NCBI GenBank assembly: GCA_964016885.1 | Contig: OZ024765.1 | Span: 18,600,001-18,664,000 of the forward strand | Source of the DNA: Eledone cirrhosa | Taxonomy: Eukaryota | DNA length: 64,000 bases | Reading direction: 5' to 3' | Part shown: in pieces, positions 34,862 to 58,991 of the stretch | Layout of the letters: each line of letters opens with the position of its first letter | Position numbering within the stretch: the first letter of the stretch is position 1 | Position numbers and translations under genes: made by a program | Notes under the pieces: generated by a model | What the model was told of the DNA's origin: nothing | What the model saw: the letters and a program-made list of their open reading frames with translations, nothing else | Database searches by the model: none

Positions 34862-34908
34862 TGCCTTGATAAGTCCCACCATGGGGTCGGACGAAACGGC
34901 TGTCGGCA
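34862..34908 (+). ncRNA. Minimal hammerhead with U3-A8 core, followed by AATAAA
   Basis: TGCC-TTGATAA-GTCC..GGAC-GAA-ACGGCTGT-C-GGCA-ATAAA. Confidence 0.8.
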
Positions 34909-35448
34909 ATAAACTTGTTATAATGTCATAATAGTTCCTTTGTTCTTTTTCACTAATATATATATATATATATATATATATATATATATATATATTATAT
35001 ATATATATATATATATATATATATATATATATATATATATATATATATATATATATATATATATATGTAAGAATTCAAAGTATTAACCAAAATAGAACTT
35101 CACTGTGATCAAGTATATTTTATTATACATATTTCAGAGGTACTGAGCTAACTTCAACAGTACGTCCTCATCAAATAAAATAAGATGATGCATTTTTATC
35201 TGATGAGGACGTATGATAAAATGTATAATAAAATGTATAATAAAATATACTTGATCACAATAAAGTTCTCTCTATGTTAATACTTTGAATGAATATTAAT
35301 AACTCCGGAAAACCTACTGTTGAGTGCTTCTAATCTATTGTAAAACTAATTCTTTGATTTATTCATCGAACCTTGTTTAACCTTTAAAAAAAAAAAAAAT
35401 ATATATATATATATATATATATATATATATATATATATATATATATAT

Positions 35449-35829
35449 ACAATATATTAATAAATGGAAACAATATTTATAAAAGCATTTTTATTTTATT
35501 ATACATATTTCAGGGCTACCAAGGCAAATTATGGTGCGCTCTCATCAGATAAAATACAATACAGATTTGTTTTATAAATAAATATTGACATACCCGGGTA
35601 TGTCAATATTTATTTATAAAACAAATCTGTTTTTAACTGATGAAAGCGCACCATAATTTGCCTTGGTGGCCTTTGAAATATGTATAATAAAATAAAAATG
35701 GTTTTATAAATATAGTTTCCATTTAATAATATTTTGTGTATTTACCCCACTAAATTGTTGAGTGCTTTATATCAGTTATAAACATGTTTAAGCTTGTTGA
35801 ATCCCACAAATTAAATATAACCTCTGCAT
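35449..35829 (+). mobile_element. Hammerhead-bearing fold-back element in (TA)n
   Basis: Loopless centre ATACCCGGGTAT at 35590-35601; TTGAGTGC tail. Confidence 0.85.
35492..35557 (-). ncRNA. Hammerhead ribozyme; mirror copy on + at 35631-35692
   Basis: Reverse complement TATTTTAT-CTGATGA-GAGCGCACCA..TGGTAGCCC-T-GAA-ATATGTAT-A-ATAAAATA. Confidence 0.78.
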
Positions 35830-35996
35830 ATATATATATATATATATATGTGTGTGTGTGTGTGTAGTAAGAGTTGCCTCCCTTGTTATGACGTCATATA
35901 TATACATTCAAGGTATAATCTACGAAATTTCTAACTGTTTATTTCGTCATCCTTAGTAAATTTGTTGCATAATTTCAAAAACTCTTTAAATTTTCC

Positions 35997-36440
35997 CTGC
36001 TGCTGCTGCTGCTGGGGTGGCTGCTTCTTCTGCTGCTGCTGGTGCTTTTGTTGCTGCTGCTGCAGTTGCTTTTTTGCTGCCGTCGCTGCTACTGCTGTTG
36101 CTGATGCTTCTTCTGCTTCGGCTGCTTCTTCTGCTGCTGCTGCTCTTGCTACAACTGCTGCTGCAGTGGCTGCTGTAGGTGCTGTTGCTGCTGCTGTGTT
36201 TGCTGCTGGTGCTGGTGCAGCACATGCATCTGCTCTTGCTGCTGTTGTTGCTGCTGTCGTTGCTACTGTTTCTTCTGCTGCTGCTCCTTTTCTTTAGGAT
36301 ATTGTTGCTACTGCTGCTGCTGTTGCTGGTGGTCTTTACTGCTGCTGTCGCCTCTGCTGCTGCTTGTGTTGTTGCTGTCGCTGTTGCTGTTTCCTCCTGG
36401 GTTGTTGGTGCTGTTGCTGGTGATGTTGCTGGTGATGCTT
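35997..36440. repeat. Degenerate (GCT/GTT)n trinucleotide repeat
   Basis: Direct reading. Confidence 0.85.
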
Positions 36441-36560
36441 ATACGCATAGAGCTTAACTAGCTACCGTCACATATTTGGTAGGTCAGATGTGATCATCGC
36501 GATTCACATACGACCTACCATACATCTTGCTATATATATATATATATATATATATATATA

Positions 36561-36632
36561 TATATGTTGGTGTAAATGGTAGCACATTGGTCTGGATAAC
36601 CAAAGATGTGGGTTCGACTCCCATGTACGTCA
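36561..36632 (+). tRNA. tRNA-like sequence, 5' acceptor strand lost into (TA)n, nominal anticodon GGA; probably an element head rather than a decoding tRNA
   Basis: D arm GTGT-AAATGGTA-GCAC; anticodon arm TTGGT-CTGGATA-ACCAA; T arm GTGGG-TTCGACT-CCCAT; T5 at 36642. Confidence 0.7.
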
Positions 36633-36736
36633 ATACTCATCTTTTTCCATCTCTCCGAGGGTTCTTAAACCCACTATCAGGCTAAATAATTTCTTTAATT
36701 TCTTTAGTCAAAATATCTATAAAACTGTCTATATTG

Positions 36737-36804
36737 TATTTTGTCTGAAGAAGGCATAACATATTGTTAATATGATATCCCTGAAATATATATATAATGA
36801 AATA
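36737..36804 (+). ncRNA. Hammerhead ribozyme, same family as 11786
   Basis: TATTTTGT-CTGAAGA-AGG..CCC-T-GAA-(AT)5-A-ATGAAATA. Confidence 0.75.
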
Positions 36805-36990
36805 AATATGGTTTTATAAATATAGTTTCCATTTATTTAATATCGTAAATATACTCCAAATACTTGTTGAGTGCTTTTATATCAGTTATAAATATTTACT
36901 AGTTGTAACCCAACAATTTAAATATAACTTTCCATATATATATATATATATATATATATATATATATATATAATATATATATATATATAT

Positions 36991-56327: not shown

Positions 56328-56372
56328 AGCTTTGATAAGCACCAAAAAGTGCGAAACACAGCTCTGTCAGCT
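56328..56372 (+). ncRNA. Minimal hammerhead with U3-A8 core
   Basis: AGCT-TTGATAA-GCAC-CAAAAA-GTGC-GAA-ACA-CAGCTC-TGT-C-AGCT. Confidence 0.8.
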
Positions 56373-56597
56373 TTATCTCCCCTGTTTGCTGAAAATTAAA
56401 GTAAGTGAGACTGTCACTACTCTAAAACAATAGCGTAAGGTCTTCGAAATTATTTTAATTAAGCATACAGTGTTTTGCAAAACAAACTGTATATACATTC
56501 ATATGTATATCGCTATTTCAGAGCACCAATCCTAATATATATATATAATTACATATCTCTATGTATGTATATGTATATGTATGTGTGTGTGTGTGAC

Positions 56598-57150
56598 TCA
56601 TGATCGGGTCGTTGGCGACTAAACTGGCAACCCCACCAAGGTTTCTTGGTGAGGAAGGTGACTTTAGGCATGTTGCAGGACTAAAAACAAAACCTGTCAA
56701 AGGGCAAAGGAGCTCTTAAGAGTCAATGGTCATCCAAAATCACCGGGAGAGATGCCCCCTTAGCCTTTGTCAAGGCAGAATTCTAGGAGAAGGAAAACTC
56801 TGATATAACACCTGCAACTCTGATGGTATCCAATGATGTTGACTTGTTCTTTTTGGTAAATATCATCCTGGTTAAGAGAGTGGGACTGCCTTTGTGCAGT
56901 GCCTTTGCTCACTATAAAAGCTTCACGGCACAGGCATTGCTTTATATCTGGAGATCTCTCTGCACTTGTCGTCACATGGTACCATTGGCCCAGCACTATG
57001 TGTCAATATTTGTCACAAGTTTAGTGTTTGTACCAGAGTTTTCAAGTCGCTGGCTGGACTAAAAAGTCACACTCGTTCAGCGCATCGGTAGGGGTTCTCC
57101 TATATGGATATAAAGTAGTGGCCGTACTCGAAAACGAGTTGGTAGCCACC
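56598..57150 (+). mobile_element. About 550-bp SINE-like repeat, copy 3
   Basis: Same sequence and same 3' junction with (TA)n. Confidence 0.85.
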
Positions 57151-57526
57151 ATATATATATATATAGTCAAATTGTTTCTGAGTTCAGTCTTTTTCGTGGG
57201 TATGGCCCTGCTATCGGTTGCTGTCTTCATTTTGCAAAGCTGTCTAAACGTAATGTTATAACTCTAGGGTTATATACCCTATCGAGTGCTTAGCTGCACA
57301 CCGAAACTGCATTCGTTAGCTTGGCTGCAACCATGGTTTCGTCGATGCTGTACTAAATTTTGTATATATATATATATATATATATATATATATATATATA
57401 TATATATATATTGTTCAATTAGAGAGAGTTAGTTTATTCAGAATCAGCCGACGTTTATGAAACAGATGGCAATCACTCGACATCGTGTGTTTATCCGGAG
57501 TATTGTTATTATAATAATTGTTTCTT

Positions 57527-57708
57527 GTTTCTACTTTTGGCACAAATCCAGCAATATCCCCAGAACATTACTGGTACTTTATTTTATCGACCTCATATGG
57601 ATGAAAGGCAAAGTTAACCTCGGCGGGATTTGAACTCAGATCGTAAAGGGACGTAACTCTATGCTATAAAGCATGTCCAACCCTCTACCAATACTGCCAA
57701 TTCACCAA
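57527..57708 (-). mobile_element. tRNA-derived SINE
   Basis: Same head, core and tail. Confidence 0.85.
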
Positions 57709-58352
57709 TAAACGAAAAGGACAGTTACTTTAGTCCATCCCTATTGATTTCATTATACGTATTTCGAATGTGAACAGAACACGTTTTGACGTATTTTACA
57801 CAAACGCCATACATCTTCGAAATACGTATAATTAAATAAATATTCTTTGTTTATTGGCGGTCAGCCAAACTGACTACACCTAGCCCACTTGATCGCCTTG
57901 AAGACAAAAACAGAGAAAACTGTTGGATTGTGTATACCATTATTCCTTTATTATATAACTAGTATGCAATAAAACCTGATGCTGTCACCAGGATCTTACG
58001 AAACATGGCCACTGATATGTACACTGTGCTTGCTATAATAAATCTCTGGAGGAATCTGACCACTCTTGTCTCTTGACATTTTGCTCAATAATATCTCCCT
58101 CCGTTCTTACACCTCCAACAAGATTCAACATTATAGATGGATGAGTTTCATGACGTCGAGTGCTTTTCCTATATATTGCATCATATTGACTATACGGAAT
58201 GACCAGTTCTATCCAATGGTGAACCATCAAACGTAAATGAATATATATATATATATATATATATATATATATATATATATATATATATATATATATATAT
58301 ATATATATATATATATATATATAATAATAATAATAATAATAATATTAATTAT

Positions 58353-58528
58353 GTCTACTTTTGGCACAAGGCCAGCAATTATACCAGTGTATTACTGGTA
58401 CTTTATTTTATCGACCCCGTAAGGATGAAAGGCAAATTTAACCACGGCGGGATTTGAACTCAGACCACAAAGGGCCGTAACTCTTTACTGCAAAGCATGG
58501 CATCAGACCCTCTACCGATACAGCCACT
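58353..58528 (-). mobile_element. tRNA-derived SINE
   Basis: Same head, core and tail. Confidence 0.85.
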
Positions 58529-58951
58529 CATATTTGTTGGTGACGCGCGGTTCGCTAAGGATCAGCTGAAGGTTCGATCTGTATCGATCTAGCCGCACTC
58601 TGTGGTAGTAATTCATATATACCCCGTTAAGGGTGAAAGTAGCGATTCTTTGCTTAAACTTTAATATGTTATTTTAATCAATATTTTCTCTACGGTTCTT
58701 ATATATTTGATATATATTTATCCTTATTGAGCCCTCTTTGGATTTTAGTCTTCAAATTTATTATTATTACTATATATATATATATATATATATATATATA
58801 TATATATATATATATCAGAAAGTGAGTTTTTTTTTACAAAATGAAAAATAACCGAGGTGTCCTACACGAGTGAAAGTATAAAGAAAAAGAGATGAAATCG
58901 AAAATGCAACTGGAGTCTTATTTTTTTAAAAAATATATATATTTATTTGGT

Positions 58952-58991
58952 ACCTTTACCGGTTTCGCAGTTCTTCTGCTTTTCAAAAGGT
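58952..58991 (-). ncRNA. Minimal hammerhead with U3-A8 core
   Basis: Reverse complement ACCTT-TTGAAAA-GCAG-AAGAA-CTGC-GAA-ACCGGT-A-AAGGT. Confidence 0.82.

Follow-up and report, generated by a model that had tools for sequence, protein, structure and literature searches.

Are hammerhead motifs in which U3-A8 replaces the usual C3-G8 pair decayed copies of ordinary ribozymes, or do they belong to families in which the double change was kept by selection? Positions 3 and 8 pair with each other in the active core of the hammerhead, and three motifs with this replacement lie close together in the window, i.e., the whole stretch of 64,000 nucleotides analysed here (Eledone cirrhosa, GCA_964016885.1, contig OZ024765.1, positions 18,600,001 to 18,664,000). 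The features under discussion are the following:

30858..30895, minus strand: decayed family 3 relative; core still UUGAAAA, helix II GCAU/AUGC, GCAA for GAAA, helix I lost
34343..34945, plus strand: family 1 fragment, 5'-truncated 3' UTR/pseudo-LTR of a putatively Hydra-type Penelope-like element (PLE), flanked by (TA)n tracts
34862..34908, plus strand: hammerhead site 1, type I; U3 34866, A8 34871; predicted cut after C17 at 34904
47632..47670, plus strand: C3-G8 hammerhead; helix I and II ends as in site 1; inverted partial copy at 47588 (minus strand)
56202..56536, plus strand: family 2 non-LTR retrozyme, one ~319-nt monomer plus terminal redundancy; 16-nt direct repeat at 56202 and 56521
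56328..56372, plus strand: hammerhead site 2, type I; U3 56332, A8 56337; predicted cut after C17 at 56368
58815..59092, minus strand: family 3 short fold-back insertion, pseudo-LTR of a putatively Neptune/Nematis-type PLE, flanked by (TA)n tracts, with inverted arms at 58986-59070
58952..58991, minus strand: hammerhead site 3, type I; U3 58986, A8 58981; predicted cut after A17 at 58957

Hammerhead Motifs with a U3-A8 Core

Judged by their letters and possible pairings, sites 1 to 3 are confirmed as real type I hammerhead motifs with U3-A8 in place of C3-G8, all at the places (34862, 56328 and 58952 minus) where a sequence-only reading had reported UUGANAA cores. Each of them has the N3-UGA-N-N8-A core with a 3-8 base pair, GAAA, A15.1-U16.1 and an NUH triplet, surrounded by helices I, II (G10.1-C11.1) and III, of which helix I is open (type I), helix II counts 4 bp and helix III is palindromic, while no extra base is present. 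Site 1 combines helix I TGCC/GGCA, core TTGATAA, helix II GTCC/GGAC, GAAA and GUC with the helix III ACGGCTGT, which is self-complementary with G.U. Site 2 (helix I AGCT/AGCT, core TTGATAA, helix II GCAC/GTGC, GAAA, a 3-bp helix III, GUC) sits within a longer helix I extension at about 56301-56397, and the segment 56297-56397 folds at z -7.2. Site 3 consists of helix I ACCTT/AAGGT, core TTGAAAA, helix II GCAG/CTGC, GAAA, the helix III palindrome ACCGGT and GUA. The degenerate motif at 30858, which had been counted as a further case, turned out to be a non-independent, decayed relative of family 3, because its GAAA has become GCAA, its helix I is lost and it resembles site 3 (73% identity over 75 nt, E 3e-7); it does not fold as a hammerhead. 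Further C3-G8 hammerheads of the window, not mentioned in the sequence-only reading, are found at 2050 and 46776 (minus strand) and at 10339, 36745, 50172 and 55585 (plus strand).

A descriptor scan allowing any letter at positions 3 and 8 was applied to 864,000 bases and, with a score devised after sites 1 to 3 had been seen, gave 36 matches at a score of 13 or more, against 0 in each of five block shuffles. Positions 3 and 8 are paired in 49 of the 50 descriptor matches of this sample (37 C-G, 11 U-A, 1 G-C, 1 C.A; shuffles, 0.8 hits), and 8 of the 11 U-A matches fall outside the window. The sole C.A match is a decayed copy, the inverted partner of which is C-G at a CpG, and a G3-C8 candidate at 57770 of the window was discarded, being single-copy in the genome and part of an unrelated inverted repeat.

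As the sequence-only reading had anticipated, a search limited to CTGANGA misses all three sites. Rfam scores stay under the gathering thresholds: 19 bits for site 1 with Hammerhead_1 (gathering 34) and 26.4 bits for site 2 with its best model, Hammerhead_HH9 (gathering 52), the consensus lines of both models being C3-G8, while site 3 has no Rfam hammerhead match at E ≤ 10. When the whole window is scanned, no hammerhead is found among the best 150 of 686 Rfam matches, which are dominated by microsatellite hairpins; (TA)n also dominates the repeat search of the window. U3-A8 makes up 11/50 of the sample matches, and one family alone has more than 6,000 copies of this kind, so that hammerheads of such genomes are undercounted by surveys restricted to CUGANGA.

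Folded alone, monomers of sites 1 and 3 do not surpass shuffled sequences (z -0.24 and -1.64, respectively). Cofolding of two copies yields -37.7 vs. 2 x -13.2 kcal/mol for family 1 and -25.3 vs. 2 x -8.9 kcal/mol for family 3, with a minimum-energy structure that has the double-hammerhead layout. Both families are predicted to fold as double hammerheads via the palindromic helix III, for which the predicted fold at sites 1 and 3 needs a second copy.

Carrier Elements and Their Sister Families

Over 603 nt, the family 1 fragment matches the 3' UTR of an ORF-bearing copy (L084) at 94% identity, and 261 nt are identical at four further places among 40 scored. The complete layout is hammerhead-ORF-hammerhead with direct pseudo-LTRs in L092 and an inverted form in L084. 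As the proteins gave no Pfam match at E ≤ 0.01 (0/3 pieces), the Hydra assignment rests on motifs: RWR, DKA, a CxCX5C linker, no GxKF/Y, a C-terminal GIY-YIG, CxxC and CxH around E and N of the EN, and a (TA)n target. According to Craig et al. (2021, PMC8557442), Hydra-clade PLEs have a C-terminal GIY-YIG, RWK, DKT and a CxCX5C linker, lack GxKF/Y and insert into (TA)n; family 1 agrees with this clade in GIY-YIG, linker, CxxC/CxH, (TA)n, lack of GxKF/Y and presence of the hammerhead in the pseudo-LTR, but differs in its near, not exact RWR and DKA, in its length (about 5.6 kb per unit, including a long 3' UTR, vs. "generally <3 kb") and in its U3-A8 core (vs. canonical hammerheads). Its sisters, with 60% identity over 686 aa, have C3-G8 at the same place (L349, L350, L352, L360). 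In an unrooted tree limited to proteins of the E. cirrhosa genome, where L356 is a broken long branch, the U-A group of family 1 (100/99) is nested in a clade (99/97) containing C-G families. The C3-G8 hammerhead at 47632..47670 has a second copy in L112.

Family 2 is non-coding, with a type I hammerhead in each ~319-nt monomer; head-to-tail copies occur in L043, L054 and L089-L091, and the core spacing is mostly 316-322 nt in the examined loci. Animal non-LTR retrozymes are described as non-coding tandem monomers of about 300 nt beside PLEs (Cervera and De la Pena 2020, PMC7229834; bioRxiv 10.64898/2026.07.22.740005), and the genomic copies of family 2 share their tandem arrangement, low GC and single type I hammerhead per monomer, but have a U3-A8 core. 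Its sisters are 77-79% identical, one of them being present at C1:6.52 Mb as six copies 316 nt apart, and a pattern common to family 2 and sisters has 1451 matches, of which 427 are C-G, 27 U.G and 19 C.A. In the DNA tree, the C-G and U-A sides separate at 100/100 (unrooted; bootstraps not settled). Moreover, a small U3.G8 subgroup, in which an additional A precedes GAAA, has been amplified (8 copies at 6 places), so that a Watson-Crick 3-8 pair is not strictly needed for amplification. A first tree suggested that this subgroup was an ancestral intermediate; this idea was dropped, as the subgroup nests inside added U-A relatives (96 U-A in the first 100 of 1089 matches of its relatives). A basal U.G copy (L213) is single and not distinguishable from decay.

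The insertion carrying site 3 shares 96% identity across 153 nt with the 3' UTR of a full-ORF copy (L081), whose 770-aa ORF, with RVT_1 (5e-07) and GIY-YIG (7.6e-05) both above cut-off, has a hammerhead at either end. The 5' pseudo-LTR copy is inverted in L081 and L082, whereas direct pseudo-LTRs 4.9 kb apart flank the ORF in L086. From these domains, the carrier qualifies as an EN+ PLE with RT and C-terminal GIY-YIG; its protein motifs are GLKF, DKG and CX4CxxC, a linker Zn-finger being common to both the Neptune and Nematis clades (PMC8557442). Genome searches found no C3-G8 sister of this family, and in a 43%-identical relative no hammerhead occurs within 1.5 kb after the ORF (24/24 copies). 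A look-alike C3-G8 motif was rejected as sister: its 1000 matches, often about 485 nt apart, are not tied to an ORF.

Origin and Maintenance of the U3-A8 Pair

One explanation would be decay of the sites from C3-G8 families, or else a chance resemblance in AT-rich DNA: each of the two changes is a transition to A or T, the region has ~30% GC, and neither site 1 nor site 3 has a significant monomer fold. The count over genomic copies that the sequence-only reading had called for rules it out: among exact-flank matches, U3-A8 is found in 215/215 for family 1, 78/81 for family 2 and 6178/6202 for family 3, with C3-G8 in 0 of each and 0 matches of reversed-pattern controls, while shuffles yield 0 matches at the score reached by sites 1 to 3. 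U3-A8 is the family state in all three families, not decay. Because the copies of a family descend from one master element, these counts cannot test selection, and lineages are therefore the unit of evidence. At this level, U3-A8 might have had a single origin, followed by transfer of the hammerhead from one element to another (pseudo-LTR capture or recombination), all three families being present in one genome, sharing (TA)n tracts as insertion sites and often adjoining or nested in one another, and retrozymes having been proposed to derive from PLE pseudo-LTRs. Against this quite improbable scenario, blastn detects no similarity among the three carriers at E ≤ 1e-3, and families 1 and 2 are closer to their own C3-G8 sisters in helix II, helix III and flanks than to the other U3-A8 families. 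Since each of these two families has C3-G8 sisters, at least two separate C3-G8 to U3-A8 switches are supported by the sequences, and the double change is a lineage-level covariation. The claim of covariation in unrelated families thus stands for two carriers; for family 3, the one argument for independence is its different PLE clade. That three separate switches occurred in one genome, each via a tolerated U3.G8 wobble, with the extra-A subgroup as an active natural variant, is doubtful; if true, it would amount to lineage-level proof of selected catalysis in autonomous PLEs and to a natural map of a compensatory route in a ribozyme core. The U3.G8 subgroup lies inside U-A families, which weakens the wobble path.

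The sequence-only reading had further concluded that the double change implies selection for catalysis. The lineage-level covariation speaks in its favour, while the copies, sharing one master, do not bear on it; catalysis itself we infer from the statement of Perreault et al. (2011, PMC3088659) that such variants, found in several natural hammerheads with C3-G8 covarying to U3-A8, are active in vitro. The swap likely keeps the families able to self-cleave 3' of H17. An unlikely alternative is that the 3-8 pair and the fold were kept for a non-catalytic role (protein/RT binding, RNA dimerisation), or that activity is too low and the motif rides along, in line with the finding that hammerheads of metazoan PLEs have little activity in vitro (PMC4209133) and with their function being called unclear and possibly parasitic on PLEs (PMC8557442). 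Yet the three families retain the catalytic letters G5, A6, A9, G12, A13, A14 and A15.1-U16.1 along with the NUH triplet, the 3-8 pair, stated in PMC3088659, is part of the active core of the textbook structure, and cleavage, either efficient or in dimeric form, is described for other animal retrozymes (PMC7229834). We thus prefer, with a probability of roughly 80%, the reading that the three sites are hammerheads of three mobile-element families with a U3-A8 core, likely still self-cleaving, the element RNA being cut to unit length.

Under the preferred reading, the palindromic helix III would pair between the motifs of a transcript having two of them (pseudo-LTR-ORF-pseudo-LTR or tandem monomers), and the resulting active double hammerhead would cut 3' of GUC or GUA; monomers of the retrozyme would form circles, borrow PLE enzymes and insert in (TA)n. 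We propose that the double change recurred because only masters keeping a 3-8 pair would have continued to amplify. The window copies are probably inert, as they are single and truncated and site 3 is predicted to be misfolded by its own fold-back, an arm of which would sequester the 5' strand of helix I.

Comparison with Known Hammerheads

The U3-A8 variant is already published, both in the natural hammerheads of 2011 (PMC3088659), where the same C3-G8 to U3-A8 covariation is reported in a section giving neither lineage analysis nor element context, and in the minimal hammerheads of Cercyon PLEs of Schistosoma mansoni (about 1,300 hits; Cervera and De la Pena 2014, PMC4209133). What may be new is that C-G and U-A sister families can be matched and that a small U3.G8 subgroup has been amplified; the term "covari" is absent from the main text of PMC7229834. 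Sister families in two element classes provide natural matched pairs that argue for selection on the active fold, in a context where the function of PLE hammerheads has been called unclear (PMC8557442) and low activity was found (PMC4209133). Non-circular hammerhead permutations (PMC10085705) were considered and are not relevant to sites 1 to 3.

Like the Cercyon hammerheads described in PMC4209133, those of E. cirrhosa combine the U3-A8 swap with type I topology, PLE pseudo-LTRs, mostly solo copies and close inverted pairs, dimer action having been proposed there too. They differ in their carriers (Hydra-type and Neptune/Nematis-type PLEs and a retrozyme), in their highly uniform copies and in having identified C3-G8 sisters, as well as in their 4-bp helix II, the lack of an unpaired base after A9 and their palindromic helix III. 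Sites 1 to 3 accordingly fall outside the strict min-HHR definition (a long helix II and a base left unpaired between 9 and 10.1, but no insert in helix III) and resemble the "less atypical" PLE motifs of fly, rotifer and shrimp in PMC4209133.

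Hammerheads with a U3-A8 core pair

The sequence-only reading had placed three hammerheads with a U3-A8 pair (UUGANAA instead of the usual CUGANGA) in the window, and all of them are present:

34862-34908 (+), site 1, in a Penelope-like element (PLE) of probable Hydra type, family 1
56328-56372 (+), site 2, in a retrozyme, family 2
58952-58991 (-), site 3, in a Neptune/Nematis-type PLE, family 3

They share a helix I of 4-5 bp, the core U3-UGA-N-A8-A, a 4-bp helix II from G10.1-C11.1, GAAA, A15.1-U16.1 and a GUC or GUA triplet. Rfam scores are sub-threshold for site 1 (Hammerhead_1: 19 bits, gathering 34) and site 2 (Hammerhead_HH9: 26.4 bits, gathering 52), and site 3 has no match to the Rfam hammerhead models. 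A degenerate site at 30858, offered as an extra case, has to be withdrawn: GCAA replaces GAAA, helix I is absent and 75 nt are 73% identical to site 3, features that identify it, at the sequence level, as a decayed relative of family 3 and not as a fourth origin.

Type I hammerheads, with any letter permitted at positions 3 and 8, were searched in 864,000 bases of the same genome, i.e., the window plus 80 stretches (40 contiguous neighbours and 40 at round coordinates over eight contigs). Matches exceed chance: leaving out one match scoring below 11, 50 score 11 or more (37 C-G, 11 U-A, 1 G-C, 1 C.A) vs. a mean of 0.8 in five block shuffles, and 25 C-G and 11 U-A score 13 or more vs. none in the shuffles, with the window sites making up 3 of the 11 U-A matches and the score having been devised after these sites were known. 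The lone G-C match is single-copy in the genome, and the lone C.A match belongs to a C-G family and has decayed. The window holds further type I hammerheads with C3-G8, from at least three other families, one of them with about 13 occurrences across the 864 kb:

2050 (-)
10339 (+)
36745 (+)
46776 (-)
47635 (+)/47588 (-)
50172 (+)
55585 (+)

Carrier elements

The family 3 motif lies on both sides of a 770-aa frame that has RVT_1 and GIY-YIG domains, both over the Pfam cut-off; the flanking copies are direct repeats at one locus (L086), and the 5' copy is inverted at two others (L081, L082). The GLKF, DKG and CX4CxxC motifs of the protein place the carrier, by sequence, among canonical PLEs, of either the Neptune or the Nematis type. 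In family 1, the motif lies before the ORF and again about 2.4-2.7 kb after it (L092, L084). The protein has no Pfam match and just 26% identity to that of family 3 over 125 aa; it carries YRDD, RWR, DKA and CxCX5C, lacks GxKF/Y, and comes close to the Hydra clade as described by Craig et al. (PMC8557442). Without any ORF, family 2 is built of units of about 319 nt joined head to tail, and the window copy has a terminal repeat of 16 nt; this organisation fits the non-LTR retrozymes of PMC7229834. All three families are housed in (TA)n tracts.

Elsewhere, a few copies of a high-copy PLE of Neptune/Nematis type are followed by a recurring CUGAUGA motif (about 670 nt beyond the ORF in L304/L361; also in L297 and L022), which has GAAA upstream instead of downstream and does not match the type I descriptor; it may be half a core or a rearranged one. 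Another C3-G8 hammerhead (L095:675, L176), whose helix II is very long and whose helix I and III ends resemble family 3, matches 1000 times in the genome, often in tandem at a spacing of about 485 nt, and is probably another retrozyme.

State and origin of the pair

With flanks fixed and N at positions 3 and 8, the proposed count of U3-A8 against mismatched copies gave U-A in 215/215 genomic matches of family 1, 78 of the 81 of family 2 (1 C.A, 2 U.U) and 6178 of the 6202 of family 3 (16 altered at 3, 8 altered at 8, no C-G), reversed patterns matching nowhere. These counts rule out random decay of C3-G8 families as the source of U3-A8, but give no measure of selection, because exact-flank copies stem from one recent master.

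The three elements, claimed as independent cases, share no blastn similarity. The closest relatives of family 1 are 60% identical over 686 aa. Among 12 fetched relatives, the ORF has a C3-G8 hammerhead at the corresponding position on either side in L349, L350, L352 and L360, and one downstream in L353, L355 and L357; four have no hammerhead (L351, L354, L358, L359) and L356, with U-A, is family 1 itself. In the endonuclease tree, the three U-A rows group together (100/99) within a clade (99/97) holding C-G families; L150, more distantly related, is C-G when read by eye. For the wider retrozyme group around family 2, a single pattern yielded 1451 matches: 427 C-G, 27 U.G, 19 C.A and 978 counted as one lot, U-A accounting for 78 of the first 100 matches listed. 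C-G and U-A families are 77-79% identical there, and their tree (unrooted, bootstrap not settled) splits the two sides at 100/100 along a branch of 0.22. Because families 1 and 2 each have C-G relatives, sequence comparison supports two separate switches between C3-G8 and U3-A8. No C-G sister of family 3 was found, and the argument for its independence is its different clade.

A U3.G8 retrozyme subgroup comprises eight copies at six places (L194, L195, L211, L212, L224, L225, L228, L229, including two tandem pairs). They have flanks in common and a helix III palindrome specific to the subgroup; most also have an additional A separating helix II from GAAA, which some U3-A8 relatives share (L274, L283, L285, L286, L288). 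The subgroup was rejected as an intermediate: 96 of the first 100 matches listed for its family are U-A, and it nests inside them in the tree. These copies demonstrate limited spread of a wobble, which counts against strict pairing; no amplified C.A group appeared among the C.A copies on the tree (15 of 19).

Folding and relation to published hammerheads

Two copies are predicted to cofold as a double hammerhead for site 1 (-37.7 vs. 2 x -13.2 kcal/mol) and site 3 (-25.3 vs. 2 x -8.9 kcal/mol), with helix II intra-strand and helices I and III inter-strand. Family 2 has an extended helix I and, in most copies, a 12-nt palindrome, weaker in the window copy (-8.7 vs. -21.5 kcal/mol as duplex). 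By analogy with Cervera and De la Pena 2014 (PMC4209133), cleavage would cut tandem or read-through transcripts down to element RNAs of unit length, and these may circularise ahead of reverse transcription. The window copies themselves are probably inert relics of active masters, since they are solitary and, at site 3, the 5' strand of helix I is predicted to be locked up in a fold-back (58986-59070).

Natural C3-G8 to U3-A8 covariation is described by Perreault et al. 2011 (PMC3088659), where such ribozymes are said to have been shown active in vitro, and Cervera and De la Pena report U3-A8 in Cercyon PLEs of Schistosoma (about 1,300 matches, dedicated descriptor). Ours are real and well supported, and are fresh examples of a variant already published. 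Among the main texts listed by literature searches, none deals with U3-A8 in retrozymes or Hydra-type PLEs, or with a natural U3.G8 family, two points on which Przybilski and Hammann 2007 and Lunse et al. 2017 may bear. What is added are matched pairs of sister families, C-G against U-A, from two classes of element; they allow a clean test of selection for catalysis in PLE hammerheads.

Other repeats of the window

15428-18565 (+), open frame, 1045 aa
20570-22984 (+), open frame, 804 aa
27302-29791 (+), open frame, 829 aa
7674-8411, 52976-53356, 57575-57650, SINE-like repeat, tandem and single copies
36568-36624 (+), partial tRNA match, 40.1 bits, over Rfam gathering
2071-2186, 58986-59070, perfect 35-40 bp fold-backs adjoining hammerheads

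The frames, which we take to be LINE-type, have endonuclease-like and RT-like motifs, 15428-18565 and 27302-29791 being near-identical copies. The SINE-like repeat may resemble mollusc SINEs, and the tRNA match is probably the head of a tRNA-derived repeat. Despite weak Rfam miRNA matches, the fold-backs were rejected as microRNA precursors: they are inverted PLE pseudo-LTR junctions.
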